The notes: generated by a model not told the origin, from the sequence alone. DNA of 51,491 bases from Patescibacteria group bacterium (GCA_025449635.1 JANWIZ010000006.1:1-51491), one strand, 5' to 3'; positions 893 through 51,206 are shown, counted from the stretch's first letter. Numbers and translations: made by a program.

Positions 893-2179
893 TTAACCTC
901 GATTCTTTAGCTTTTCTAAGAAAATGCTCGAAAGTTTGTAAATATCCCCAGCTCCCATAACAATAACAATATCGTTTGCTTGGGTGCTTGTATTCAAATA
1001 TTCAGCTGATTCTTCAAACCTTGGGATATATTTAACACTTTCTCTTTTTACAGCATCAACAATATCTCTGCTTGAAATATTCTCCTTATTTTCTTGCCTT
1101 GCCGCAAAAATATCTACCAAAATTATTTCGTGAATATTGAGTGAGCTAAAAACTTTAACAAAATCATCAAACAAATACTTTGTGCGACTAAACATATGTG
1201 GTTGATAAACCAGCCAAATTCTCTTTCCCTGAAATTCTTTTTCAGCTGCTTCAATAGTGGCTTTAATTGCTGTTGGGTGGTGACCATAATCATCAAAAAC
1301 TTTGACACCTTTTTCTTCACCCTTTAACTCAAATCTTCTTGAAATCCCCCCAAACCTGGATAAAGATTCTTTAATTTTCGCATCTTCAACCCCTAATACA
1401 GATGCAACTGTTGCCGCAACAGAAGCATTGGTTTGATTTAGCTCTCCAATTAACTTTAGATTGATCTTCTGCTTTTCAACAGTTTTTTTTCTAATTTTAC
1501 CGACCTCAAGATCAACATTTTCCCCTAAAACTATCGTACCTTCTTCATCAGTCTGGGAAATAAATTTTTGAAAAGCAGACTTCACTGCCTCTTCATTAGA
1601 AAAATATTCTGGATGGTCCATCTCAATCGCAGTCACAACGGAAACAAAAGGGTGATAGAGCAGAAATTTCTCCTGGTATTCATCTGCTTCGAGAACAAAA
1701 TAATCTCCATGTCCAATGCGATAATTCTTCCTCCAATCAAGAACAACTGCTCCAACAAAAACACTGGGATCAAATCCACTATCTTCCAATATTTTTCCAA
1801 CCATCGCAGTTGTTGTGGATTTTCCATGTGTACCGGTTATCGCGATTATTTTTTTGTCTGCTATCATATACTGAGAAAGAAATTCTTCACCAAGCAGAAC
1901 TGGAAGATTCTTTTCTTTTGCTGCTAATAACTCTTTATTATTCGAATCCAAACTTTCAATAGCTGGGGATACTACCAAAATATCGGCGCTTTCTAAGTGC
2001 TTCTCGTCGTGATTTGAGAAAATTTCAACATTGTCATATGAAAGTTGTTTTAAAAATTGAGACTCGAGATCCAGATCACAACCAGAAATTTTGAAACCAG
2101 CTGCTTTTGCAAACGCAGCCACTGCAGAAACTCCTGCCCCACCAATACCCATGAAGTGAACTCGTTTACCCGTTTCCAT
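893..2179 (-). CDS. murC: UDP-N-acetylmuramate--L-alanine ligase
   Basis: 428-aa ORF. It has N-terminal GIGGAGVSAVA, the Mur-ligase P-loop GTHGKSTTT and DDYGHHP in the C-domain. It sits in dcw context between the glmU-like gene and murB. Confidence 0.95.
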   Translation of the reverse strand: METGKRVHFMGIGGAGVSAVAAFAKAAGFKISGCDLDLESQFLKQLSYDNVEIFSNHDEKHLESADILVVSPAIESLDSNNKELLAAKEKNLPVLLGEEFLSQYMIADKKIIAITGTHGKSTTTAMVGKILEDSGFDPSVFVGAVVLDWRKNYRIGHGDYFVLEADEYQEKFLLYHPFVSVVTAIEMDHPEYFSNEEAVKSAFQKFISQTDEEGTIVLGENVDLEVGKIRKKTVEKQKINLKLIGELNQTNASVAATVASVLGVEDAKIKESLSRFGGISRRFELKGEEKGVKVFDDYGHHPTAIKATIEAAEKEFQGKRIWLVYQPHMFSRTKYLFDDFVKVFSSLNIHEIILVDIFAARQENKENISSRDIVDAVKRESVKYIPRFEESAEYLNTSTQANDIVIVMGAGDIYKLSSIFLEKLKNRG

Positions 2180-2918
2180 TTAGCCTTTCTTTCATCAATT
2201 TGTTAGCCAATTCTAATTCCTCTGGTGTATTTACCCCAACCCATTCCTCTACCCCAACTTCAAAACCCAATACTTTTTCTCCACTATTAAATGCTACCGT
2301 TACCAAATCTGGCAAAATCAATTCCCCTTTACCCACCTTACTAGGTTTCAACTTAGCATAATTTTTGTTAAACCACTCTCTTTCGACAAAATAAGTTGCA
2401 GCGTTAACTTCGTTAATTTGCTTTTCTTCATCTGTTGCAGTTTCTTTCTCAACGATTGCAACCACATTTCCATCTTTATTTCTTATGACACGACCAAAAG
2501 CCCCAGGATTGTTCAGTTTTACAGTTGTAAAGCCAATTTTAAAATCGCTAGCTTTTCTAATAAAACTTTCGATTGTTTCTTTGCTGTAAAAAGCACTATC
2601 ATCCCCTTGAATTATCAATAAATGCGTAATGTCATTAACTATTTGTTCCTCACCAACTTTTGCAGCGTGTGCAGTTCCTTTTCTTTCCTCTTGAACTGCA
2701 AATTTCACTTGCCTGGAAAAAGCTTCTCTAACCAAATCAGCTTTATAGCCAATCACCATCACAATCTCATTAAAATCAAGCGCTTTCAACAAATCAAGGG
2801 TGTACGAAACCATAGGTCGATCACAAATTTCATACAAAACTTTAGGTTTTTCTGAAGGTTCTCCTAGATTTAACCGAGTGCCAGAGCCTGCTGCCAAAAT
2901 AATTGCTCCAACTTTCAT
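2166..2918 (-). CDS. glmU: Stand-alone GlmU-type uridyltransferase domain (UDP-GlcNAc pyrophosphorylase half, no acetyltransferase beta-helix)
   Basis: 250-aa ORF with the LAAGSGTRL nucleotidyltransferase loop. TVKLNNPGAFGRVIRNKDGNVVAIVEKETATDEEKQINEVN closely parallels the E. coli GlmU N-domain as I recall it. The ORF ends before any hexapeptide-repeat region and overlaps murC by 14 nt. Confidence 0.8.
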   Translation of the reverse strand: MKVGAIILAAGSGTRLNLGEPSEKPKVLYEICDRPMVSYTLDLLKALDFNEIVMVIGYKADLVREAFSRQVKFAVQEERKGTAHAAKVGEEQIVNDITHLLIIQGDDSAFYSKETIESFIRKASDFKIGFTTVKLNNPGAFGRVIRNKDGNVVAIVEKETATDEEKQINEVNAATYFVEREWFNKNYAKLKPSKVGKGELILPDLVTVAFNSGEKVLGFEVGVEEWVGVNTPEELELANKLMKERLNGNG

Positions 2919-7368: not shown

Positions 7369-7800
7369 TTAGATCCCACTCTCAGACAATTTTTCGGCAA
7401 TTTCTTCACTCTTATTCTCGATTTTCTTGTTATAGACTTTCCAAATTCTTTTTGACCAAATTTCTACTCTTGACGCGACTCCGATTATCAAAACTTCCTT
7501 TTCGAGGTTAGCAAAACTAATCAAATGTTCTGGAATCATAATTCTCCCCAACTTATCAAAGCTAACCTCAACAGCGCTACTAAATAGATAGCGTGAGAAA
7601 GCTCTTGCATCAGATCCGGTAAGCGGTAATTGTTGTACCGAAGAGCTCAGGTTATTCCATTCTTGTTTAGGGTATAAAAAGAGGCATCCGTCTAAACCTT
7701 GTGTTAGAACGCATGCAAATTCCAACTTATCCCGAAATTTCTTTGGGATAGCTAATCTTCCTTTGTGATCAAGGTTATGTAGGTATCTGCCGAGTAACAA
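7369..7800 (-). CDS. mraZ: Transcriptional regulator MraZ
   Basis: 143 aa with a TTG start codon (7800-7798). It has two AbrB/SpoVT-like halves carrying DHKGRLAIP and DKLGRIMIP. The stop abuts the rsmH start. Confidence 0.95.
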   Translation of the reverse strand: MLLGRYLHNLDHKGRLAIPKKFRDKLEFACVLTQGLDGCLFLYPKQEWNNLSSSVQQLPLTGSDARAFSRYLFSSAVEVSFDKLGRIMIPEHLISFANLEKEVLIIGVASRVEIWSKRIWKVYNKKIENKSEEIAEKLSESGI

Positions 7801-7948
7801 TTTTTATACAGTTTGGGCAGATAACTGTCTCCAAAGGTACTCTCTTATGCTTTCAAAGTGCTAGAGGAGTACCAGCTGTCCAGAAGGGCAGGCAAACATG
7901 GTTCATATACGTTTAGACTCTAAGTATATGCAGGGTAAAAATATGTTT

Positions 7949-7972
7949 CCACAATTTACCACTTTTTACCAC
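7949..7972 (-). promoter_or_regulatory. Putative MraZ operator: three GTGG boxes with exact 10-bp phasing
   Basis: Minus strand reads GTGGtaaaaaGTGGtaaattGTGG (plus-strand ccac at 7949, 7959 and 7969). It begins 7 nt after the predicted -10. This matches the three 10-bp-spaced direct repeats described for the E. coli MraZ operator. Confidence 0.55.
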
Positions 7973-7979
7973 TGAATTT

Positions 7980-8008
7980 ATTCTATTACCCACACCACAC
8001 TCGGTCAA
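7980..8008 (-). promoter_or_regulatory. Sigma70-type promoter of the mraZ/dcw operon
   Basis: Minus strand: TTGACC (8008-8003), a 17-nt spacer, then TAGAAT (7985-7980). The implied 5-prime UTR is about 170 nt and contains a hairpin, GGTACTC/GAGTACC, at 7836-7873. Confidence 0.55.
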
Positions 8009-8106
8009 GCCACTACATATGCAATAGAAAATAGTTACAGGATACTAAATATAGTACTTCCTGCTCTATATCAGGTTGGAAATTATGATATGATTACTGA
8101 TAAACT

Positions 8107-8769
8107 ATGGACTGGCATAACCTAATTGATCTAAAAAATTCGCCTCATTTAAATTTTCTACAAAGTAAGGGTTCGTTCTGGGAGGCAATTGTGGATTTGG
8201 AAAACTATATAGACGAGTTCTTCAAAAACCCTCCGGCTGAGTTTTCCAAAAATAATAATCTTCTTCTAGGAAGAGGGGTAAAGATTGCTAAAACCGCTAC
8301 AATTTTAGGAAAAGCAGTTATTGGAGCAAATAGTGAGGTCAAGGACAGTGTTTTGTTGCGTGATGGGGTGGTTATAGGTGAAAACTGTATCATTGGTCAC
8401 GCATCCGAAGTCAAGCATTCCATGATTCTAGATAGTTCCAACATTGCCCACCTAAATTACGTGGGTGATTCTTTGATCGGTAGTAAAGTTAATATTGCTG
8501 CTGGGGTAATCGTTGCAAATGTTAAAAGTGGTGCGAGAAACAGCGAGGTGTTTGTTGAAGTCTCAGGAGAAAAGGTCGCAACTGGACTTCAAAAATTAGG
8601 AGCCCTGGTCGGCGATGGGACAAAAATCGGTAGTAATTGTGTCCTTGATCCTGGGGTTATACTAGGAAAAAATATTATTACTTACCCATTAACACCCATT
8701 CGGGGAACTTTTCCAAGTAATAAAATTATAAAGTATAAACCAAATCTCGAAATTGTAGATAAAGAATGA
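8107..8769 (+). CDS. Stand-alone GlmU-type left-handed beta-helix acetyltransferase (glucosamine-1-phosphate N-acetyltransferase half)
   Basis: 220 aa, with hexapeptide repeats throughout. AHLNYVGDSLIGSKVNIAAGVIVAN and LGALVGDGTKIGSNCVL parallel the GlmU C-domain. There is no nucleotidyltransferase domain. It shares an ATGA overlap with the next gene. Confidence 0.75.
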   Translation: MDWHNLIDLKNSPHLNFLQSKGSFWEAIVDLENYIDEFFKNPPAEFSKNNNLLLGRGVKIAKTATILGKAVIGANSEVKDSVLLRDGVVIGENCIIGHASEVKHSMILDSSNIAHLNYVGDSLIGSKVNIAAGVIVANVKSGARNSEVFVEVSGEKVATGLQKLGALVGDGTKIGSNCVLDPGVILGKNIITYPLTPIRGTFPSNKIIKYKPNLEIVDKE

Positions 8770-9884
8770 AGCTTTACGAATTTGAGGCAAAAAATCTTCT
8801 ACGCTCTGCTGGAATAAACGTTCCGAAAAGCTCCCTTTTGTCGAACCCAGATCAAAAAGTAAAAATAAATGGTAAGTATCTGGGGAAAGCCCAGGTACTT
8901 TTTGGTGGACGTGGAAAAAAGGGTTTGATTTCTACAGACTACAAAACTCTTTTTGCGAAGAACAATGTTGACAAAGTGTTGGTTGAAGAGTTTCTTGAGT
9001 GTGAGCAGTTGTTTTATTTAGCAATAACTTATTCTACCAAAACGAGAAGCCCAGTGATTCTTTTTTCAACCAATGGTGGTGTTGATGTTGAAGACAATCG
9101 AGAAATTGAACAATTTCCAATTGATCTGGAAAACCCAACTTTACCTATAATTAACTCTGCCGTTGACATGGTTGTCAAAAAACTTTGGAACCTTTTTAAA
9201 CAGCTTGATGCAAGATTAGTTGAAATCAATCCATTGGGAAAAATTGGAGAAAATTTTGTAGCCTTGGATGCCAAATTTATACTAGATGACGATGCGTTGT
9301 ATAGACACCCAAACTTACAGTTTGAACCCCGAAGTCAACTTGGGATAAAACCTACCCAAGCTGAAAAACTAGCTTTAGAGATTGATAAGCAGGATCATCG
9401 CGGTAGTGCCGGCAGTAGTTACTTTGACCTCTCTGGAGACATAGCTGTTATAGCTGCTGGCGGAGGTGGTAGTGTGGTTAATATGGATGCTCTGATTGCC
9501 TTAGGAGGTAAGCCTGCTAATTATACAGAACATTCTGGTAACCCCCCTGCAGAGAAGGTAGAAAAACTTACCAAAATCGTTTTATCGAGGCCAGGATTAA
9601 ATGGTTTGTGGTTTGTGGGGGCAACAGCAAATTTTACAGATATGGTTGAGACTCTGTCAGGCTTTATCAATGGGTTAAGGACAATAAAACCAAAACCCAA
9701 ATACCCAATCGTAATCCGGCGCGGCGGACCACGTTGGAAAGAGGCTGAAAAAATGTTGCTCCTGATCAAAGAAAAGGAGCGTTTTGATTTTCATATTTTC
9801 GGTCCTGAAACACCAATGACAAGCACTGCCAAAATAGTTGTAGATTTAGTCAACAAGTATAAACAAAATAATAAACGAACTTAG
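8766..9884 (+). CDS. ATP-citrate-lyase / citryl-CoA-synthetase-type ATP-grasp (beta-like) subunit
   Basis: 372 aa with an ATP-grasp N-half (MKLYEFEAKNLL). The C-half motifs are AAGGGGSVV, PANYTEHSGNP, GATANFTD, IVIRRGGP and FGPETPMT. These line up with the N-terminal part of ATP-citrate lyase as I recall it, not with SucC. Confidence 0.75.
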   Translation: MKLYEFEAKNLLRSAGINVPKSSLLSNPDQKVKINGKYLGKAQVLFGGRGKKGLISTDYKTLFAKNNVDKVLVEEFLECEQLFYLAITYSTKTRSPVILFSTNGGVDVEDNREIEQFPIDLENPTLPIINSAVDMVVKKLWNLFKQLDARLVEINPLGKIGENFVALDAKFILDDDALYRHPNLQFEPRSQLGIKPTQAEKLALEIDKQDHRGSAGSSYFDLSGDIAVIAAGGGGSVVNMDALIALGGKPANYTEHSGNPPAEKVEKLTKIVLSRPGLNGLWFVGATANFTDMVETLSGFINGLRTIKPKPKYPIVIRRGGPRWKEAEKMLLLIKEKERFDFHIFGPETPMTSTAKIVVDLVNKYKQNNKRT

Positions 9885-9888
9885 AAAT

Positions 9889-10770
9889 ATGGCTATTTTA
9901 ATTGACAAAAAGACAAAAGTATTAGTCCAAGGAATCACTGGAAAGGAAGGTACTAGAGCTACTGAACAAATGCTTTCATACGGCACCGCTGTTCTCGCTG
10001 GCGTGACTCCAGGAAAAGGTGGGCAAGAGCTACTTGGGGTAAAGGTGTTTAATTCTATCAAAGAGGCACTTCTTAAAAACCCGGAGATTAATGCGACTTC
10101 GATATGTGTACCCGGAGCATTTGCAAAAAACGCAATTCTAGAAGCAATTGAAAACAAAATCCCATTAATTCATGTTCTTACGGAACATATCCCTATTGCG
10201 GACACTGCATATTGTTTTGCTAAAGCAAGAAAAATTGGGGTAAGAATAGTTGGTCCAAGCTCAATCGGTATAATTAGTCCAGGAGTTTCAAAGCTTGGTT
10301 CGATCGGCGGTCCTGACCCTAGTTTTAGTTTTTCCAAAGGCAAGATTGGCCTTATCTCAAAGTCTGGAGGTATGACCAGTGAGATTGCGTTGATACTTAA
10401 AAAAGCAGGTCTCGGGGTTTCAACCGCAGTTGGAATTGGAGGAGATGTGATAATCGGATCAACTTTCGCTGACCTATTTCCGTTATTTGAAGAAGACCAT
10501 GCAACTTCTGGTATTATTATTTTTGGCGAAATTGGTGGCAGTTATGAAAACGACTTTGCAAAACTCATACGTGATAAAAATCCAGCCTTCCCAGTTGCCG
10601 CCTTTATCAGCGGTCTTTTTGCACAAAAACTTCCTGAGGACTTGGCACTTGGACACGCTGGTGCAATAATAGAAAAGGGAAATTCCTCAAGAGCAGAAAA
10701 AATTAGAGAACTTAGAAAAGCAGGGGTCTTAATTGCTAATACTCCTGACCAATTAGCAGGTTTTTTTTAA
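9889..10770 (+). CDS. Succinyl-CoA-synthetase-alpha-type CoA-binding subunit with phosphohistidine loop (CcsB/AclA-N-like)
   Basis: 293 aa with the motifs QGITGKEGT, GVTPGKGG, SKSGGMTSE and LGHAGAII (catalytic His loop). Confidence 0.85.
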   Translation: MAILIDKKTKVLVQGITGKEGTRATEQMLSYGTAVLAGVTPGKGGQELLGVKVFNSIKEALLKNPEINATSICVPGAFAKNAILEAIENKIPLIHVLTEHIPIADTAYCFAKARKIGVRIVGPSSIGIISPGVSKLGSIGGPDPSFSFSKGKIGLISKSGGMTSEIALILKKAGLGVSTAVGIGGDVIIGSTFADLFPLFEEDHATSGIIIFGEIGGSYENDFAKLIRDKNPAFPVAAFISGLFAQKLPEDLALGHAGAIIEKGNSSRAEKIRELRKAGVLIANTPDQLAGFF

Positions 10771-11256
10771 ATGAACCTCAAGAATCCGAAAACAATAGCA
10801 CCCAAATCACTTTTTGTAAAAGTACTTCAATGGTTTTACCTAATTACCGGAATCTTGACTGCAACATTTTTCCTCTGGTCTAAGCAAATTTCATTTTTCT
10901 CCTCGCCAAACATTCCTGGGGAGCTTATTTTGGCAATCACTGTTGCAGCTGGTTTGTATTGTTTAATACTCTCTTTGTCTTTTTTTGCTCAAAATACCAA
11001 TTTGCTTATTCTATCTTTGGTTTTAATCTTTTTTACGACCATATCTGCTCTTATTATGTTGGTAGTAACTATTCCCAATGCGCAAACTATTTTTAGTGGC
11101 AATTTACCAGAATGTTCGCGAAATCTAGCGCTGTGTAATCTTAAAGACGGCGTTATTGTGGCTTCGGCAATGTTTATGGCAATTTCGATACCCTTACTCA
11201 TTCTAAATTTTATTACTATCATTGGAGCAGTAATAGCAATTGCTGCAACAGACTAA
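10771..11256 (+). CDS. Hypothetical 4-TM membrane protein embedded in the citrate-cleavage operon
   Basis: 161 aa with four hydrophobic helices. The loop before the last helix carries a Cys pair (CSRNLALC). The start codon directly abuts the upstream TAA (TAAATG), and its stop is 2 nt before the next ATG. I recognise no family. Confidence 0.65.
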   Translation: MNLKNPKTIAPKSLFVKVLQWFYLITGILTATFFLWSKQISFFSSPNIPGELILAITVAAGLYCLILSLSFFAQNTNLLILSLVLIFFTTISALIMLVVTIPNAQTIFSGNLPECSRNLALCNLKDGVIVASAMFMAISIPLLILNFITIIGAVIAIAATD

Positions 11257-11258
11257 TC

Positions 11259-12008
11259 ATGAACAACGAAAAATTTGAAACTAAAATCAGTAAGCACGAC
11301 GAAAATGGAGAACCTATAATCCGTGGTTACAATTTGATTGAACTAATTAACAAAGTAAATTTCACTCAAAGCATTTTTTTGACGTTAAAAGGAGAGTTGC
11401 CAAGCGAAAATGAAGAAAAATTATTGAATGCCATTTTAGTTTCTTCTCTAGATCATGGGGTCGAAGCCCCATCGACTACAATCGCCCGTTTAACTGCCTC
11501 AAATGGAGTCTCAAGCTCTACTGCAATTGCTGCAGGAATTTCTTCAATTGGTGACGCCCACGGTGGAGCTGGCGAAGCTCTTGCCAAACTTCTTCAGGAA
11601 ACCCCTGAAAAAAATGCTTCAAAAATTGTGGTTGAATTTAAGGAAAAGAAAAAAAGAATCCCTGGTTTTGGTCACAAAATTTATGAAGTTGACCCTCGCA
11701 CACAATCCTTATTGAAAATTGCGCAGGATACTGGTTTTTATGGAAAATTTGTGAACCTTTGTCTCGAGATAGAAAGAGAGCTTGAAAAAGTTTCTGAAAA
11801 GAAGCTTCCACTCAATATCGACGGGGCAATTGCAGCTTTAATGAGTGAACTCGGGTTTGACTGGAGACTGGGGAAAAGTCTATTCATCATTTCCCGGGTT
11901 GTAGGAATTTCTGCTCACGTCCAAGAGGAGCAAACAACTGGAAAACCAGTAAGAAGAGTTTCTGAAAAGGATGTTGACTATACTGGTCCCACAAAACGAA
12001 ATTTATAG
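11259..12008 (+). CDS. Citryl-CoA-lyase-like protein (short citrate-synthase-fold protein)
   Basis: 249 aa with the motifs LDHGVEAPS, IGDAHGGA, GFGHKIYEVDPR, LNIDGAIAAL and SRVVGISAHVQEE. These align with the C-terminal citryl-CoA lyase module of ATP-citrate lyase. The protein is much shorter than a full citrate synthase. Confidence 0.75.
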   Translation: MNNEKFETKISKHDENGEPIIRGYNLIELINKVNFTQSIFLTLKGELPSENEEKLLNAILVSSLDHGVEAPSTTIARLTASNGVSSSTAIAAGISSIGDAHGGAGEALAKLLQETPEKNASKIVVEFKEKKKRIPGFGHKIYEVDPRTQSLLKIAQDTGFYGKFVNLCLEIERELEKVSEKKLPLNIDGAIAALMSELGFDWRLGKSLFIISRVVGISAHVQEEQTTGKPVRRVSEKDVDYTGPTKRNL

Positions 12009-12029
12009 CAAAAAGCGTAGAGCTACTAG

Positions 12030-13349
12030 CTAGCTCAGCTTAACCCGCAAATATTCACTTAGTTCCGTAACTGATACCCTTTTTTGTTTCATACTATCCC
12101 TTTCGCGAATTGTCACGGAATTATCCTCCAACGAATCGAAATCAACGGTAATACAAAACGGGGTACCGATCTCGTCAGAGCGACGATATCTACGCCCAAT
12201 TGAGCTAGTCTCATCATAAGTTACAAACCAGTTTTCTTTAAGATCTTTGTATATATCTTTAGCTATTATTTGTAATTTCTCGTCCTTCACCAAAGGTAAA
12301 ACTGAAACTTTGATAGGTGCTAATTTTGGGTTAAACTTAAGAACTGTCCGTGCCTCCCCCTTAATTTCCTCTTCAGTATAGGAGTCAATAAGAAAAGCTA
12401 GAAATGCTCGACCCACACCAACTGATGGCTCAATCACATACGGTAAATATTTATCCTTATCATCTTCATCAAAGTAAGTCAGGTCTTTACCTGAAGTTTT
12501 CATGTGTTGTTTGAGATCATAATCACCTCGGCTAGCAATACCCTCCAGCTCGCCAAAACCCATGAATGGCCAATCATACCAAATTTCCGCAGTTCCCTTG
12601 GAATAGTGAGCAAGATCTTCCTTAAGAAGCTGAACCAGTTTAATATTCTCTTTTTTTATTCCTAGATTTAAAAACCAGTTTAACCTTTCCTTTTGCCAAT
12701 ATTCGTGGGCTTTTTTCTCAGTTCCTGGTTTTACAAAATATTCAAGTTCCAACATTTCAAACTCGCGGACTCGAAAAAGAAAATTTCCTGTTGTAATCTC
12801 GTTACGAAAACCTTTTCCGATCTGTGCTATACCAAAAGGAAGTTTTACTCGAGAACTTTGCATCACATTGTCAAAATTGATGAAAATTCCTTGAGCTGTT
12901 TCGGGTCTCAAATAAACCACTTCCGCATCTTCTTCAGTTGATCCAAGTGAGGTCTTAAACATCAGGTTGAAGTCTTTAGCTTTGGTAAAATCCTTTTTCC
13001 CGCAAGTTAGACATTTGCTGTCCTGTGGTAAATGGTCAGCTCGAATACGGCTGTGACAGTTTTTACATTCAATTAACGGATCAGTGAAATTTTTGATATG
13101 ACCTGATGCTTCCCAAACTTTCGGGTGATGAAGAATTGTTGAATCTAAACCAAGTACATCATCGCGTTTTTGAACTATAGCTTTCCACCATTCTTCTTTA
13201 ATATTTTTTGCTAACAATGTTCCAAGTGGTCCCAAATCCCAAGTTCCATTTAAGCCTCCGTAGATCTCACTGCCTTGAAAAACAAAACCTCGTCTTTTAG
13301 CAAGTGAGACTATTTTTTCCATTATTTGAATTTTTTCGCTTGTAGCCAT
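12030..13349 (-). CDS. glyQS: Glycine--tRNA ligase (dimeric class II type)
   Basis: 439 aa with the motifs LAKRRGFVFQGSEIYGGLNGTWDLGPLG and RPETAQGIF and a Cys cluster (CKNCHSRIR...CLTCG). The C-terminal anticodon-binding region matches GlyQS-type enzymes. Confidence 0.95.
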   Translation of the reverse strand: MATSEKIQIMEKIVSLAKRRGFVFQGSEIYGGLNGTWDLGPLGTLLAKNIKEEWWKAIVQKRDDVLGLDSTILHHPKVWEASGHIKNFTDPLIECKNCHSRIRADHLPQDSKCLTCGKKDFTKAKDFNLMFKTSLGSTEEDAEVVYLRPETAQGIFINFDNVMQSSRVKLPFGIAQIGKGFRNEITTGNFLFRVREFEMLELEYFVKPGTEKKAHEYWQKERLNWFLNLGIKKENIKLVQLLKEDLAHYSKGTAEIWYDWPFMGFGELEGIASRGDYDLKQHMKTSGKDLTYFDEDDKDKYLPYVIEPSVGVGRAFLAFLIDSYTEEEIKGEARTVLKFNPKLAPIKVSVLPLVKDEKLQIIAKDIYKDLKENWFVTYDETSSIGRRYRRSDEIGTPFCITVDFDSLEDNSVTIRERDSMKQKRVSVTELSEYLRVKLS

Positions 13350-36096: not shown

Positions 36097-37668
36097 TTAA
36101 TCACTAAATATTCTATAGACTTCAAAATTATTGATAGTTCTTACTTTCTCGATTAATGTTGAATTTATGATTGGCCAATTTTTCACAGAATAATAATCAT
36201 TTGTTCTGGAAATTAAGTACTTTATGTCATATTTATCTGCCTTCTCAACCAACACATGCTCCTCCATAAGTACATCATTTGCTAATTCGACATATTTGAC
36301 TTTTGCATTGAAACCGATATCCTTCGGGGCCAATATTGTTCCTAGATCATTCTTTTTCACGTAATCAATGAGCGAATTCATACTTTTTTCACCATAGTAA
36401 TATGTTACAGATTTTTGAGAATCAGAACGCAAATTCATAATTAACCCTTGTGAACTTATGATAGCTAGTAAACCGACTACTAAATAAAGTCTCTTTTGTC
36501 TCAAAAACAGCAAGGGAACTAAAATCAGTGCAATTAGCAACGGATTCAAATAACTCTCGGTAATTACACTCCAAAAACCTCTCACATAATACGCATCGAA
36601 TATAGGATCTGTTCTTACTAAAATCAAAGACCCTAACAAACCAATAAAAAAGAGGGATGAAAAATAAATATATATTTGTGGAAAAAATTTCTTATAATTA
36701 TTTAGAAATAGAGTTATTGAGAAAATAAAAAGAAACAAAACCACAGGTAAGTACTTAACAAACTCAAACGGGTAGGATCTAAAAATGAAAGTGTAAAGAA
36801 AAATCAAAATAGCCGAGGCCGATAAGGCAAATATCTGATACTTATTCTTTGTTATTGATAGCAAAGCTGCTAATACTAGCAGTGGGTTTATCCAAAGTAA
36901 ATTTCTCGGAATATTGTCAATCATTACACTTTTAAAATACCCAAGAGTTAACTCTGGTCGGTTTGTACTAGACTTTACATAGTTAAGATTATCTTGGAAA
37001 CTGCCACCGAAAAGTTTATTCAGTAGTATCCAAAAAATACTAAAAGCAAAGATACCAAGAAACACTTGTGTCAAGACAGATACCCGCTTTCTGTTAAGAA
37101 GCTCTTTGTAATTGGTAATCAGATATGAAATTACAATAACAGGCCCAAATGTGAGCTTGGACAGAAAAGAGATTGCGATTCCCAACCAGAAGTTCTTCGT
37201 TTCTAGTAGTAGTAAACAAACTAAAGCTATTAACGGAAATAGTTGGGTATCTATATCTGGAAGTAAACTTGAGAAAGTAAAATAAGGAATTAATGCAATA
37301 GCAAAAGCAACTAGGTTTGGTCTTCCAAATTTTCTCTTAAACCAAAAATAAAAAATAATTAGCGTAAGTAGATAAATCAGCACACCAAATAATCTTGCCG
37401 TAGAAGCTAAAAAAGGAACGGCAAGAAAAAATAATCCCAACATACTTATATATAATGGTGGGTGCCATAAACCCAAGTTTTCTGGATTTGCTTCCCCCCG
37501 ATAATATATCGCAGACAAATTTTCAGATATCGATTTACCGACAAGTGGGTATTCTATTTCGTCCATAATCAAAGGAAATCTAATATGTCTAAAGGCTAAA
37601 TAAGCGCTAAAAGCTAAAAGGAGAAGAAATATAATATCCTGTACACTGAGTTTAAGAAGTTTTTTCAT
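36097..37668 (-). CDS. GT-C fold polytopic glycosyltransferase (ArnT/PMT-like)
   Basis: 523 aa with at least 10 TM helices. The first loop, RFPLIMDEIEYP, carries a DE motif as in ArnT/PMT. It overlaps the upstream polyprenyl-phosphate GT2 gene by 17 nt. Confidence 0.7.
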   Translation of the reverse strand: MKKLLKLSVQDIIFLLLLAFSAYLAFRHIRFPLIMDEIEYPLVGKSISENLSAIYYRGEANPENLGLWHPPLYISMLGLFFLAVPFLASTARLFGVLIYLLTLIIFYFWFKRKFGRPNLVAFAIALIPYFTFSSLLPDIDTQLFPLIALVCLLLLETKNFWLGIAISFLSKLTFGPVIVISYLITNYKELLNRKRVSVLTQVFLGIFAFSIFWILLNKLFGGSFQDNLNYVKSSTNRPELTLGYFKSVMIDNIPRNLLWINPLLVLAALLSITKNKYQIFALSASAILIFLYTFIFRSYPFEFVKYLPVVLFLFIFSITLFLNNYKKFFPQIYIYFSSLFFIGLLGSLILVRTDPIFDAYYVRGFWSVITESYLNPLLIALILVPLLFLRQKRLYLVVGLLAIISSQGLIMNLRSDSQKSVTYYYGEKSMNSLIDYVKKNDLGTILAPKDIGFNAKVKYVELANDVLMEEHVLVEKADKYDIKYLISRTNDYYSVKNWPIINSTLIEKVRTINNFEVYRIFSD

Positions 37669-46780: not shown

Positions 46781-48535
46781 TTATTTTACTGTAACCGACT
46801 TTGCTAAGTTACGAGGTTTATCGGGGTCATAACCTTTTTCTAAAGCTAAATAATAACCAAGAATTTGCGCAGGAACAACCAAAGGTATTAGCGACGCTTC
46901 CTGAATATCCTTTACTTCAATCCAATGGTCAAAGACATCTGCCTTTGTTGGTCCAATTCCAATAATTAAACCCCCGCGCGAACGTATTTCGGTAGCGTTG
47001 GAAATAATTGCCTGATAAGTCTCATCATTAGGTGCAAAAACAATGCAAGGAGATCCTTTATCTATCAACGCAATTGTCCCGTGCTTTAGCTCGCCTCCAG
47101 CAAACCCCTCTGTGTGAATATAGCTTACCTCTTTGATCTTCATGGCTGTTTCTAATGCCAGCGCATAAGTAACACCCCGACCGATTGTATAAATATGCTC
47201 CTTAGAGGCTAATACTTTTGCAATATTTTTAAGTTTCTTTAAATTACTTGATTCAAGAATCCTTTCTATTTCTCCAGCTGCTTGAAACAGTAAATTTTGT
47301 GCGTCTTTAACTTTATTTGCAAGCGTAAAGGTCAATAAGAGTAGGAAAGCTATCTTTGCTGTGTAGGCTTTTGTCGAAGCAACAGCTAACTCTGGACCTG
47401 CTCCAAGTAAAATCTTAATGTCCCCCATCCGATAAATTGTCGATCCTAAAGCATTTACTATTGAAGCAATTCTAACCCCGCTTTTTTTAGCAAAGTTTAA
47501 CGGCTCTACCACATCAATAGTCTCCCCACTTTGAGATAATGCAATTACCAAACTTTTTTTTGTAAGAAACTTTTCTAAGTATACAAATTCTGAGGCGAAG
47601 GAAGTATTGACATGTCTATCTATTTTTGAAAATAAATAGGTTGCAGCTAAACAAGCATAAGAAGCGGTTCCTGAACCTATTAGAAATGTTCCTTTGGCTT
47701 TTTCCACCGCCGTTGCCAGAATTTTTGCCTCAGAAACCAAAGTATTAGCAACATTCCTAATGACTTTAGGTTGCTCATAAATTTCTTTTAACAAATAGTG
47801 AGGGTATTTACCTAAATCGTTGTCGAGAACACTCCAATCAAGGGTTATTAACTTTTTCCTAATAAAGTTGCCTGATTTAAGATCAAAAATCTTAATCCCA
47901 TCTTTACCCAAAGTTGCCAACTGACCATCATCCAAAAAAATAACCCTTTTCGTATGAGGAAGAATTGCAGTCGCATCGGAAGATAGATAAAATACATCCT
48001 CTCCTTCTCCCAAAACTAAAGGTGAACCGTTTTTAGCTACCACTATTTCGCCATTTCCTGATCCAACCGCAATAGCATTCAAGCCCTCAAGTTTAGAAAA
48101 TACTTTCCGAACCGCGTCTTTAAGGGTATGTGACCCTACCTCCTCTTCTATCATATGAATTATTACTTCAGTATCGGTTTGGGATCTGAAATGATGGCTT
48201 TTTGACAAATTTTTTACAAGCAGTTGGTAGTTTTCAACAATACCGTTATGAACTAAACTAAGACTATTGTCACAAGATAAATGTGGGTGTGAATTCTCCT
48301 TAGTTACACCACCATGAGTAGCCCAACGAGTGTGTCCTAGACTTATTGTTGAATCTGGTAAAGTTACTATCGAACTACCAATTTTTCCGGAAGCTTTTTC
48401 AACTAGAAATGTCTTATTACTTCTAACTGTTACACCCCATGAATCATAACCACGATATTCGAGTACTCGCAAGCTCTCTAATGTTTCTTTTGCCGTTCTC
48501 GGTGTTTTTGAAACGTAACCAAAAATTCCGCACAT
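46781..48535 (-). CDS. glmS: Glutamine--fructose-6-phosphate aminotransferase
   Basis: 584 aa with N-terminal MCGIFGY (Cys nucleophile), two SIS domains and a C-terminal LAKSVTVK. Confidence 0.95.
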   Translation of the reverse strand: MCGIFGYVSKTPRTAKETLESLRVLEYRGYDSWGVTVRSNKTFLVEKASGKIGSSIVTLPDSTISLGHTRWATHGGVTKENSHPHLSCDNSLSLVHNGIVENYQLLVKNLSKSHHFRSQTDTEVIIHMIEEEVGSHTLKDAVRKVFSKLEGLNAIAVGSGNGEIVVAKNGSPLVLGEGEDVFYLSSDATAILPHTKRVIFLDDGQLATLGKDGIKIFDLKSGNFIRKKLITLDWSVLDNDLGKYPHYLLKEIYEQPKVIRNVANTLVSEAKILATAVEKAKGTFLIGSGTASYACLAATYLFSKIDRHVNTSFASEFVYLEKFLTKKSLVIALSQSGETIDVVEPLNFAKKSGVRIASIVNALGSTIYRMGDIKILLGAGPELAVASTKAYTAKIAFLLLLTFTLANKVKDAQNLLFQAAGEIERILESSNLKKLKNIAKVLASKEHIYTIGRGVTYALALETAMKIKEVSYIHTEGFAGGELKHGTIALIDKGSPCIVFAPNDETYQAIISNATEIRSRGGLIIGIGPTKADVFDHWIEVKDIQEASLIPLVVPAQILGYYLALEKGYDPDKPRNLAKSVTVK

Positions 48536-49515
48536 TAGTCTAATATTCTAATAAGTTCTTTAGCAATTTTGCTTGAATCGTGGCGAATAAAGCTTCTCTT
48601 TAACTTATCCCCAGTTGATTTTTCAATCGGATCTGAGGCAAGAAAATCTTGCCTGACAATTTTGAAACCTTTTTCAATTAAATCATCTTCAACTGGTGAG
48701 TCTTGTTCAGCTACATAACGCTCTATGATATCCTCTGGAAGTTTTGTGTCGTTGATTAAAACAAAATCTAAGCAGTTACCTAAATATTTCTGCATTTCCC
48801 CTACAAAGTCACTGGCTTTGAAACCAAAAGTCTGCCCGTACTTCGTCATCAAATTTACAATATAAACTTTCTTTGCTTTTGAATTGCAAATAGCTTCTCT
48901 CACTTCGGGTACAACTAAATTCGGAACAAGTGAGGTGTATAAATCTCCTGGACCAATCACTATCAAGTCAGCTTGCTCTATCGCCTCCAAAGTTTTCTTA
49001 TACGCAGTTGCCTTCGGTTCTAAATACAAATTCTTGATTCTCAAAGTCCCATCATGCTTCGGAACATCAATCTCATCTTCACTTTTGACCACTGAACCGT
49101 CCTCATACTCAGCAACTAAATTTGCATTTGTTAAAGTCACTGGCAATACTTTACCCTTGATGTTCAAGATTTTACTTGTTTCCTCAAGAGCTTTTTCCAT
49201 ACCGCCAGAAACTTCCGCAAGAGTAGTTAAGAAAATATTCCCAAAACTATGTCCAGCTAGTCCTTCGCCTTTCTCAAAACGATAGTTAAAAAGCTCTCTC
49301 AAAGTTGAAGTATCCCGACTCAGGGCCACAAGGGCTTGTCTAACATCTCCGGTAGGTAAGTGACCAAATTCATCTCGCAAGCGTCCAGAGGAACCGCCAG
49401 AATCCATCATTGTAACAACTGCTGTTAGATCTAAACTAATGCCGTTCAGACCGGTTAACACTGTATATGTACCCGTTCCCCCACCAATAACTACAATTTT
49501 TTTGGACTTTGTCAT
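48535..49515 (-). CDS. YvcK/GlmR (CofD-like, UPF0052) family protein
   Basis: 326 aa with IVVIGGGTGTYTVLTGL and MMDSGGSSGRLRDEFG. Its stop overlaps the glmS start by 1 nt (TAATG). Confidence 0.85.
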   Translation of the reverse strand: MTKSKKIVVIGGGTGTYTVLTGLNGISLDLTAVVTMMDSGGSSGRLRDEFGHLPTGDVRQALVALSRDTSTLRELFNYRFEKGEGLAGHSFGNIFLTTLAEVSGGMEKALEETSKILNIKGKVLPVTLTNANLVAEYEDGSVVKSEDEIDVPKHDGTLRIKNLYLEPKATAYKKTLEAIEQADLIVIGPGDLYTSLVPNLVVPEVREAICNSKAKKVYIVNLMTKYGQTFGFKASDFVGEMQKYLGNCLDFVLINDTKLPEDIIERYVAEQDSPVEDDLIEKGFKIVRQDFLASDPIEKSTGDKLKRSFIRHDSSKIAKELIRILD

Positions 49516-49595
49516 ATTATTTTAACGAGGTAATTTTATCATATTTTTACAGTTTGGTTGTAAGTTTCAAACAAACCTGTTTTAATCAACGTTCT

Positions 49596-51206
49596 ATGAC
49601 CAAACGAAGTAAAAGAAATCACTTTGCTATTCAAAAATTTATTTCTTTACCTTTCCATTTCTTAGCGTTTACTTTAGTACCCATATTGTTTTTTATTTCT
49701 AAAAATCTAGGTCAAGTTTCCTCATTCAATAACGATGCGCTTATTTTGATAATTGCTTCATTAGTTTGTGCAATTACAATTTGGACCATTTTATTTTTTT
49801 TCTCCAAGAATTACGAGAAGAGTTCGTTAATTACTACTGTAATTCTAGTAAGTTTTTTCTCTTATGTTCCTTTGCTTAAATTTTGGCAGAAAATTCCAAT
49901 GAAACTATCAAATAACACGATTGAATTATCACTTTATCTTTTCTTAATTACATTAGTGACTATTACCACTATAGTAATTTTTAAATTTAGAAAATCTTTA
50001 GCGATTTGGACTAAGTTTTTTAATATTATTGCTCTTACCTTACTAATAATTTCCCTCGGTACAATTGCTAAATACGAGCTTTCTCAGTTAAAAATTAATC
50101 TAAATAAAACAAGCGAACGAATGGAGATAGATAAGATGAATCTCAAGAAACCAGAAAACCCTCCTGATGTCTACTATATAATTTTTGACGCATTTCCAAG
50201 ATCAGATACTCTTTCTAAGCTTTATAATTATGACGATAAAAGCCTTGATCATTTTTTTGTTAAAAAAGGTTTTTTCATCGCAACCAAAAGTGTTAGTAAT
50301 TATGCTCATACTCATTTTTCCCTTCCGTCAAGTTTGAATATGAGATATCTAAACTATCTGACCGATGAGATTGGCGGCAAAAGCAATAATATAAATCTAC
50401 CAAAAGAAATGATCAGAAATAACGATGTGATTTATGCATTTAAGTCGCTTGGTTATAAAATTATCCAAATAGGTTCGGAGTATGATCACACAGCGTCAAA
50501 TCCCTATGCTGATCTAAATATAAACAACTCAGATGCTGTGATAAAAATTGGTAAATTATCGTTGGCGGTAAATAACTATTTAACTACCTTTTTGGAAACA
50601 ACAGCTTTATATCCCGCGATTAAAAATTTAACTGATAATAACGTAAGAACTATCCGCCTTAACGCGGTGAACAATGTTCCTAAAACACTTAAAGAACAGG
50701 GTCCGAAATTCGTTTTTGCCCATCTTACTATCTCTCACCCATCCCCTTTGTTTGATAAAAATGGAGCGCCTGTCAGCGATGCAGTTTTAAATTCAATTTC
50801 TAACATTTATACTGACATAAATCATAACTTAGATCAAAATATTTTTGTTATGAAAAAAATGAAAGAAATTATAGATAAATTACTTTCCAACTTAGAAAAT
50901 CAGCCAATAATTATTATTCAATCCGACCACGGTCCTACCTCGATTCTTGGACACCCGCATCATTGGGAAAGACCGTTTGAAAATAAGATTGAAGGTCTCA
51001 AGGAAAGAATGAGGATATTAAACGCTTATTATTTTCCGAAAGTTAAAAACCCAAATCTTTACGAAACAATAACCCCTGTCAATACATTTCGTGTTTTGTT
51101 TAATACGTATTTTGGGGGTAATTTTAATCTTCTTGAAGATAGGAGCTATTATTCAGATCACGTTAATAAGTATGAATTTTTTGATGTAACTAAAATTGTA
51201 AAATAA
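49596..51206 (+). CDS. Polytopic membrane protein with extracytoplasmic alkaline-phosphatase-superfamily (LtaS/GacH/sulfatase-like) domain, paralog 2
   Basis: I prefer ATG 49596 (MTKRSKRNHF), because the track start 49509 overlaps the divergent yvcK gene. N-terminal TM helices are followed by VYYIIFDAFPRSD, SNYAHTHFSLPSSLNM and IIQSDHGPTS. The C-terminus is paralogous to 19809..21404. Confidence 0.7.
   Translation: MTKRSKRNHFAIQKFISLPFHFLAFTLVPILFFISKNLGQVSSFNNDALILIIASLVCAITIWTILFFFSKNYEKSSLITTVILVSFFSYVPLLKFWQKIPMKLSNNTIELSLYLFLITLVTITTIVIFKFRKSLAIWTKFFNIIALTLLIISLGTIAKYELSQLKINLNKTSERMEIDKMNLKKPENPPDVYYIIFDAFPRSDTLSKLYNYDDKSLDHFFVKKGFFIATKSVSNYAHTHFSLPSSLNMRYLNYLTDEIGGKSNNINLPKEMIRNNDVIYAFKSLGYKIIQIGSEYDHTASNPYADLNINNSDAVIKIGKLSLAVNNYLTTFLETTALYPAIKNLTDNNVRTIRLNAVNNVPKTLKEQGPKFVFAHLTISHPSPLFDKNGAPVSDAVLNSISNIYTDINHNLDQNIFVMKKMKEIIDKLLSNLENQPIIIIQSDHGPTSILGHPHHWERPFENKIEGLKERMRILNAYYFPKVKNPNLYETITPVNTFRVLFNTYFGGNFNLLEDRSYYSDHVNKYEFFDVTKIVK

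Follow-up and report, generated by a model that had tools for sequence, protein, structure and literature searches.

A predicted citryl-CoA synthetase/citryl-CoA lyase operon adjoining a GlmU-type acetyltransferase gene in a Patescibacteria group bacterium

A 51,491-nt stretch of DNA from a Patescibacteria group bacterium (GCA_025449635.1, JANWIZ010000006.1:1-51491; hereafter the window) contains a block of five plus-strand genes at positions 8107-12008, which includes predicted genes for the two subunits of citryl-CoA synthetase (CCS; CcsA and CcsB) and for a separate citryl-CoA lyase (CCL), together with genes for a left-handed beta-helix (LbH) acetyltransferase and a membrane protein (Table 1). 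We read this locus as a canonical two-enzyme system for ATP-dependent citrate cleavage that would supply acetyl-CoA for the N-acetylation of amino sugars, and we assign to this reading a probability of about 0.6. The predicted identity of the enzymes as CCS and CCL is by itself highly probable, and the odds that the module is coupled to GlmU are about even. The original prediction had proposed a CCS plus CCL module in a reduced, candidate phyla radiation (CPR)-type genome, probably acting as a stand-alone route from citrate to acetyl-CoA, and this core proposal is supported by the family models, the PDB matches, the tree, and the invariant active-site residues described below.

The beta-like protein encoded by the first gene of the module matches Citrate_bind (PF16114), a Pfam domain specific to ATP-citrate lyase (ACL), with 89.6 bits (cutoff, 26.8) and ATP-grasp_2 (PF08442) with 82.7 bits. 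Its weaker NCBIfam matches are models of SucC, a subunit of succinyl-CoA synthetase (SCS), and these remain more than 200 bits under their cutoffs (TIGR01016, 157.7 vs 375.55 bits; NF001913, 146.1 vs 370 bits). The ranking of PDB matches was as follows: 6hxq_B, the large subunit of Hydrogenobacter CCS (168 bits), 6hxj_A, Chlorobium AclB (157.7 bits), and the best SucC (101.8 bits). A bootstrapped neighbour-joining tree (residues ~125-372, 200 replicates) was constructed with the sequences from the printed PDB alignments and Escherichia coli SucC as references. SucC was split from the group of CPR, CCS, and ACL sequences in 200/200 replicates, and the ACL clade excluded the CPR sequences in 200/200 as well. 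The CPR beta subunits formed a clade of their own in 138/200 replicates and were grouped with Hydrogenobacter CcsA in only 24/200.

The motifs ANYTEHSGNP, ANFTD, and RRGGP of the beta-like protein align with G309, N346-F347-T348, and R379 of human ACLY, which correspond to G258, N289-F290-T291, and R319, respectively, in the window protein. G309, N346, T348, and R379 of ACLY are reportedly citrate contacts (Sun et al. 2010). In 21 CPR homologues, the positions G258, N289, T291, and R319 and the quoted motifs are invariant, as are the ATP-grasp positions K41, R49, E74, N155, and D168. These comparisons support the assignment of this protein as a CcsA-like large (beta) subunit of CCS, and the models and the tree largely refute its identity as an ordinary SucC. 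The kinship with ACL and CCS that had been claimed thus holds for the domain match, the PDB ranking, the tree, and the conserved residues, the protein being placed outside SucC and not nested within it.

The 249-aa product of the last gene scored 286.5 bits (cutoff, 212) against the NCBIfam model NF004869, 'citryl-CoA lyase', a model of the 'subfamily' level. In the PDB, it matched Hydrogenobacter CCL (6hxp_A) with 226 bits (E = 3.9e-66) vs 101.5 bits or less for any citrate synthase; the CCL module of Chlorobium gave only 68 bits. The best citrate-synthase model yielded 103.9 bits and did not reach its cutoff of 421.3, the Pfam citrate-synthase match spans only profile positions 162-355 of 357, and the protein is shorter than full-length citrate synthases and 2-methylcitrate synthases (~370-430 aa). 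Eight active-site residues have been listed for E. coli citrate synthase (PMC13147460), and seven of these are identical in the aligned window protein, where H66, H101, H139, R147, D188, F209, and R213 correspond to H229, H264, H305, R314, D362, F383, and R387, respectively. The eighth, R407, differs both in the window protein and in the validated Hydrogenobacter CCL. Across 78 orthologues, no variation is seen at five of the residues (H101, H139, R147, D188, and R213). These data support the view that the protein is a separate CCL that corresponds to the C-terminal, catalytic portion of a citrate synthase in its fold and carries the His/His/Asp set. As judged from these alignments, it is a member of a conserved ~250-aa family with intact catalytic residues and not a degenerate fragment; its designation as a CCL, as opposed to an ordinary citrate synthase, had been part of the original prediction and is borne out by the PDB scores.

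The alpha subunit contains the Pfam domains CoA_binding (PF02629) and Ligase_CoA (PF00549), and a phosphohistidine loop, G-H256-A-G-A, in which H256 is invariant in 78 orthologues. The SucD equivalog model gave 292.9 bits and did not reach its cutoff (353.2). Because the scores do not separate CcsB from SucD, the alpha subunit alone is not diagnostic, and its partnership is set by its adjacency to ccsA, which is found in essentially all related loci. No CCL domain is attached to it: the alpha gene ends at position 10770 and the CCL gene begins at 11259, with the 161-aa transmembrane (TM) protein gene between them. Taken with the PF16114 and NF004869 matches, the quoted motifs, whose positions are invariant in the CPR homologues, represent strong homology signals that are not attributable to chance.

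Within the five-gene block, the first two genes overlap by 4 nt, and the three junctions that follow have gaps of 4, 0, and 2 nt, in this order. These distances agree exactly with those first reported, and all of the open reading frames (ORFs) and motifs described at that time are present. On one side, the block is flanked by an mraZ-rsmH-ftsL-PBP-mur cluster in divergent orientation, and on the other by glyS in convergent orientation. A scan of positions 7700-12200 for consensus promoters and terminators gave counts no higher than the shuffled expectation and was uninformative on operon structure, and an Rfam scan of the whole window gave no matches. Family scans of the 51-kb window characterize it as an envelope-biosynthesis and envelope-glycan island. 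No tricarboxylic acid (TCA) cycle genes are present among its genes, so that the claimed lack of TCA context holds within the window, which is the extent to which it was verified.

Table 1. Coordinates and characteristics of the genes of the citrate-cleavage locus and of associated genes. Positions refer to the window except for the last row, in which positions refer to related loci.
Gene or product	Position	Strand	Length	Remarks
LbH acetyltransferase	8107-8769	+	220 aa	Overlaps ccsA by 4 nt
CcsA-like beta subunit	8766-9884	+	372 aa	ATP-grasp and ACL-type citrate-binding domain
CcsB/SucD-type alpha subunit	9889-10770	+	293 aa	CoA-binding domain, GHAGA loop
Orphan membrane protein	10771-11256	+	161 aa	Between ccsB and ccl
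CCL (predicted), citrate-synthase fold	11259-12008	+	249 aa	
N-terminal (uridylyltransferase) half of GlmU, predicted	2166-2918	-		Inside mur cluster, between two Mur ligase genes
glmS	46781-48535	-		NF001484, 607 bits (cutoff, 381); directly adjoins yvcK
yvcK	48535-49515	-		TIGR01826 YvcK, 320.5 bits (cutoff, 196); encodes UDP-GlcNAc-binding protein
HAD-family hydrolase in relatives	L001 9115-9573; L002 9137-9580; also L007, L088, L090		~150 aa	

In a scan of GTDB species representatives, relatives of ccsA were identified in at least 205 genomes; among the best 80 of these 205, nearly all whose titles are informative belong to Microgenomates-type CPR. Sizes of 0.9-1.0 Mb were noted for several of the related chromosomes or contigs, and those related chromosomes that are complete lie below 1 Mb. 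Many beta-subunit homologues with 50-73% identity are found in CPR bins (Woykebacteria, Daviesbacteria, and 'Patescibacteria group'), and some have already been named 'citryl-CoA synthetase large subunit' in the JGI annotation. Of 84 related loci, essentially every one of adequate length has ccsA, ccsB, and ccl on one strand and in this order, usually with a ccsB-ccl spacing of -16 to +100 nt, and the alpha subunit and CCL are encoded by separate genes in all 84. The 'three-piece' layout is therefore the canonical CCS/CCL architecture and not an oddity; its description as an unfamiliar arrangement was overstated, three genes being what defines this system.

Genes inserted between ccsB and ccl are lineage-specific and include toxin-antitoxin-like small pairs, a PhoU/PHO4 pair, and a thioredoxin/DsbD pair. 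The small-ORF pairs (~77-82 aa plus 115-121 aa) occur in several Daviesbacteria-type loci (L016, L032, L033, L041, L077, and L084) and look like mobile cassettes of the toxin-antitoxin type; L016 also carries a PhoU-like/PHO4 phosphate-transporter pair at this site. Some relatives carry a gene for an HAD-family hydrolase between ccsA and ccsB that the window lacks (Table 1), and its best models, TIGR02253 and a YjjG-type nucleotidase, all scored under their cutoffs. Downstream of the module, 12 Curtissbacteria-type loci (L037, L039, L040, L045, L055, L063, L065, L068, L069, L072, L075, and L078) consistently have two genes after ccl, one RuvC-like (167-202 aa, recognized by eye from the sequence) and one for a conserved multi-pass membrane protein (267-291 aa). 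Contigs bearing the operon in L005, L006, L009, L017, and many other loci are labelled, in the titles of their public records, as 'uncultured Gammaproteobacteria', 'Candidatus Nanoarchaeia archaeon', or 'uncultured archaeon'. The operon in such contigs is of the CPR type and adjoins mraZ, rsmH, and mur genes, and the labels are probably placeholders or wrong taxonomy.

The LbH gene, which the original prediction had included in the operon on the basis of its overlap with ccsA, proved to be the most informative neighbour. Its product contains Pfam Hexapep and LbH domains, matches positions 247-389 of 393 of TIGR03992 (Arch_glmU) with 129.7 bits, and is 33% identical to the C-terminal half of a full-length GlmU-like protein encoded at the same position in L003. 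It is thus predicted to be a stand-alone C-terminal half of GlmU, i.e. the half with glucosamine-1-phosphate (GlcN-1-P) N-acetyltransferase activity. The presumed partner is the predicted N-terminal half encoded within the mur cluster, which matches Pfam NTP_transferase and positions 2-241 of 447 of the NCBIfam GlmU models (176-180 bits). Both domain halves thus appear to be present in the window, encoded ~5 kb apart and on opposite strands. A fused full-length GlmU-like gene lies directly upstream of ccsA in L003-L005, and the two halves are encoded by adjacent genes directly upstream of ccsA in L017, in which a Mur ligase gene is also located downstream of the module.

In a survey of neighbouring genes (6-kb flanks per locus), 42 of 85 loci, or 40 of the 71 with enough upstream sequence, were found to have a GlmU-type gene no more than 3 kb from the module. 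The linkage occurs in seven of 15 CcsA clusters defined at 60% identity and persists down to 43% CcsA identity. All 38 orthologous GlmU-type neighbours match TIGR03992, and 37 of the 38 match classical GlmU models. Other genes for amino-sugar metabolism recur in different arrangements, namely glmS-ccsA-ccsB-ccl-yvcK-glmU in L083 and glmS-glmU-yvcK-ccsA-ccsB-ccl in L038; the same two genes, yvcK and glmS, are present in the window (46781-49515). In L062 and L081, NeuB-type gene clusters for nonulosonic acids are located upstream of the module, and a PseH-like GNAT acetyltransferase gene lies 10 nt upstream of ccsA in L062. No paper naming both citryl-CoA lyase and GlmU was found in the literature searched, and the GlmU/amino-sugar genomic context of the module appears to be a new element.

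Five loci with flanks identical to those of the window (L086-L090) contain an mraZ-glyS interval without LbH, ccsA, ccsB, and ccl. All that this interval holds (9498-10785 in L090, for example) is the gene for the TM protein, that for the HAD hydrolase, and a hydrophobic ORF of 89 aa. A search for remnants of the four missing genes in L088 and L090 found none; in both loci, LbH is missing along with the three module genes, and the flanks are unchanged. The LbH-ccsA-ccsB-ccl set is therefore a presence/absence polymorphism among close relatives.

The membrane protein encoded between ccsB and ccl belongs to no Pfam or NCBIfam family, and its homologues form only 26 clusters, all unnamed. Its AlphaFold2 model (pLDDT, 83) contains four long helices that would form a membrane bundle, with two invariant cysteines (C115 and C122) in the loop ahead of the last helix. 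A Foldseek search of this model against the PDB returned nothing with E < 0.33, the best matches (E = 0.33) being generic four-TM bundles. The gene occupies this position only in the clade of the window (L001-L005), and the TM and HAD genes are kept in L086-L090, in which LbH, ccsA, ccsB, and ccl are absent. In L006, a 160-aa five-TM ORF is located 3' of ccl, but it is not a homologue of this protein. An obligate role in the module, either as a citrate transporter or as a membrane anchor, was considered and rejected on the grounds that the gene is clade-restricted and persists without the module. Since it remains in relatives that lack the module, the protein is a resident of the locus with no demonstrable role as a module subunit, and is probably a clade-specific insertion and not a dedicated subunit. 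The interruption that the original prediction had pointed out does exist, but only within this clade, and it is incidental to the module.

We infer that citrate is the substrate, that the reaction runs in the direction of cleavage, that the module is coupled to GlmU, and that the citrate comes from an external source, presumably through scavenging from a host or from the surroundings. In the proposed pathway, ATP would phosphorylate H256 of CcsB in the CcsA-CcsB complex, the phosphate would then be passed to bound citrate, and reaction with CoA would give citryl-CoA, which CCL would split into acetyl-CoA and oxaloacetate. The LbH protein would use the acetyl-CoA to acetylate GlcN-1-P and return the CoA, and the N-terminal half of GlmU would make UDP-GlcNAc for MurA and glycosyltransferases. 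Overall, citrate + ATP + GlcN-1-P would be converted to GlcNAc-1-P + oxaloacetate + ADP + Pi, and CoA would be recycled in a catalytic role. The acetyl groups would be destined for peptidoglycan and envelope glycans, and amino sugars other than GlcN-1-P may be included among the acceptors. The module would be co-transcribed with the acetyltransferase half of GlmU, beside the dcw/mur cluster and outside any reductive TCA (rTCA) cycle. Standard free energies of -8.0, -5.9, and -2.1 kJ/mol have been given for ACL, CCS, and CCL, respectively (PMC13147460); with the latter two values, cleavage would be modestly favoured, and consumption of acetyl-CoA would pull it further. On a broader scale, we tentatively suggest, at slightly less than even odds, that many Microgenomates-type CPR bacteria use scavenged citrate as the acetyl donor for wall amino sugars, and that CCS/CCL is coupled transcriptionally and evolutionarily to GlmU- and PseH-type acetyltransferases, together with which it would be gained and lost.

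Several observations weigh against the proposed role of the locus. In the 6-kb flanks surveyed, a GlmU-type gene within 3 kb is lacking in about half of the loci, some have unrelated neighbours (dnaG-rpoD in L031, ruvC in Curtissbacteria), and shared ancestry inflates the linkage counts, which are phylogenetically non-independent. In addition, at least one Microgenomates genome encodes both pyruvate:ferredoxin oxidoreductase (PFOR) and acetyl-CoA synthetase (PMC7143001), so that acetyl-CoA need not depend on citrate. The window yielded no citrate transporter, and a search of the multi-TM neighbours in the other loci turned up a PHO4/PhoU pair, DsbD with thioredoxin, and a PMT-type glycosyltransferase but no carboxylate transporter. 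The alpha subunit, moreover, matches archaeal SucD no less well than CcsB. The module could be a genuine CCS/CCL for the general supply of acetyl-CoA or oxaloacetate, with its adjacency to GlmU and dcw genes reflecting inherited gene order and no specific coupling. We regard this as unlikely, in view of the recurrence, in rearranged orders, of non-homologous genes related to acetyl-CoA and UDP-GlcNAc (glmS, yvcK, full-length or split GlmU, and PseH-like GNAT), the joint absence of LbH and the module, and the 4-nt overlap of LbH with ccsA, which suggests translational coupling. The ACL reaction is also near enough to equilibrium to reverse, as the free energies quoted above indicate, and CCL carries a full citrate-synthase catalytic set. 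In a fermenter, CCL might therefore condense acetyl-CoA with oxaloacetate and CCS yield citrate and ATP, the pair serving as an energy-conserving citrate synthase, and CPR bacteria do depend on substrate-level phosphorylation (PMC7143001). Such a reverse run is quite improbable: no citrate-using or oxaloacetate-generating enzyme was found in the window or among the neighbours, the recurrent neighbours consume acetyl-CoA and do not produce it, and, by our own reasoning, an ADP-forming acetyl-CoA synthetase would give equal ATP while sparing oxaloacetate.

The citrate-cleaving function of the CPR members is predicted from sequence, their beta-subunit clade (138/200) is distinct from both Hydrogenobacter CcsA and ACL, and the CCL model that they match is only of the subfamily level. 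A different di- or tricarboxylate and acyl-CoA, e.g. malate, citramalate, methylcitrate, or itaconate, might thus be used, but this is scarcely probable given that the presumed citrate-contact positions of ACLY are identical and invariant and that the single departure from the oxaloacetate/citrate site of citrate synthase is seen in the validated Hydrogenobacter CCL too. The remaining explanation, ordinary SucCD accompanied by a citrate synthase that is truncated or has degenerated, or else part of a carbon-fixing rTCA cycle, draws on the alpha subunit, whose PDB matches place archaeal SucD (248 bits) ahead of CcsB (6hxq_A, 230 bits), and on the SucC models among the weaker matches of the beta subunit. 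It is hardly credible in the face of the PF16114 domain of the beta subunit, its position outside SucC, its scores far below the SucC cutoffs, and the intact catalytic residues of the ~250-aa CCL family; the lack of TCA genes in the window and the size of the related complete chromosomes (<1 Mb) argue in the same direction.

Some further features of the window were noted. The mraZ-LbH intergenic region (7801-8106) contains three TTT(A/C)CCAC repeats with exact 10-nt spacing (7946-7952, 7955-7962, and 7965-7972) and a further CCAC at 7990-7993; these repeats read GTGG on the mraZ strand. A promoter-like site, TTGACC-17-TAGAAT, is located on the minus strand at 8008-7980, with the CCAC repeats just downstream. 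Because the GTGG repeats lie just 3' of this site, the 7946-7993 segment looks like a putative MraZ operator. Blocks of the intergenic region are conserved in L090, although the downstream plus-strand gene is different there. A large envelope-glycan island (14800-46737) contains genes for DUF4012, a sugar transferase, a ManC-like protein, a sulfatase-like protein, a polysaccharide deacetylase, many GT1, GT2, and GT4 glycosyltransferases (including two GT2-GT1 fusions of ~700 aa), RmlA/B/D-like proteins, a PglF-like dehydratase, a DegT aminotransferase, an ATP-grasp enzyme, and an ABC-2 exporter. The ORFs at 36097-37668 (minus strand, 523 aa) and 49509-51206 (plus strand, 565 aa) gave no Pfam match.

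CCS/CCL and ACL are usually taken as marker enzymes of the rTCA cycle. As a large clade of ultra-small, non-autotrophic bacteria carries the module without the cycle in the sequence examined, its use as a marker of autotrophy or of rTCA in metagenomes would be misleading. If the coupling to GlmU is real, citrate would be a key imported metabolite of such CPR bacteria, and the model would provide a testable account of the source of acetyl groups for peptidoglycan precursors in some of them, with a bearing on CPR host dependence and on the design of cultivation media. The identity of the CPR enzymes as CCS/CCL is not new, since it is already recognized in public annotation and in a 2022 preprint. 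That preprint reports that CPR/DPANN sequences annotated as SCS or citrate synthase are monophyletic with CCS and CCL and sets these enzymes in the evolution of the rTCA cycle (bioRxiv 10.1101/2022.10.25.513756), whereas our reading places them in amino-sugar acetylation. What the present analysis adds is the recurrent genomic link between citrate cleavage and amino-sugar acetylation in CPR.

The closest known counterpart is the system of Hydrogenobacter thermophilus, CcsAB and Ccl (PDB 6HXQ and 6HXP), which was reportedly described by Aoshima et al. in 2004. As in that system, the window encodes a large beta subunit with a citrate-binding domain, a small alpha subunit with the phosphohistidine, and a separate CCL of ~250 aa; the H. 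thermophilus proteins are the best PDB matches of the beta subunit and CCL, and the catalytic residues are kept. The CPR beta subunits nevertheless form a clade separate from Hydrogenobacter CcsA, with citrate-loop motifs (ANFTD and RRGGP) closer to those of ACL than to ANNTR and RRNGP of Hydrogenobacter, and the alpha subunit has 293 aa vs 353 aa in the 6hxq_A chain. Unlike in Hydrogenobacter, the three genes share one operon with a GlmU-type acetyltransferase gene in a host of the reduced-genome CPR (Microgenomates) type. The physiological setting of the characterized CCS/CCL is the rTCA cycle, whereas the neighbours of the module point to amino-sugar metabolism, and a role in rTCA is unlikely given such a host and a 51-kb window without TCA genes. 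With SucCD, the module shares its fold and the phosphohistidine mechanism, and the alpha subunits are almost inseparable by score, but the beta subunit has a citrate-binding domain and falls outside SucC. ACL (Chlorobium limicola AclAB, 6HXJ, and eukaryotic ACLY) has the same chemistry and the same citrate-binding residues; in ACL, however, the alpha part is fused to the CCL module, whereas these are separate genes in the window and are parted in its clade by an unrelated membrane-protein gene. Eukaryotic ACLY supplies biosynthetic acetyl-CoA outside any TCA cycle, and the CPR module, if our reading is correct, would be a bacterial, non-autotrophic counterpart of ACLY in this function.

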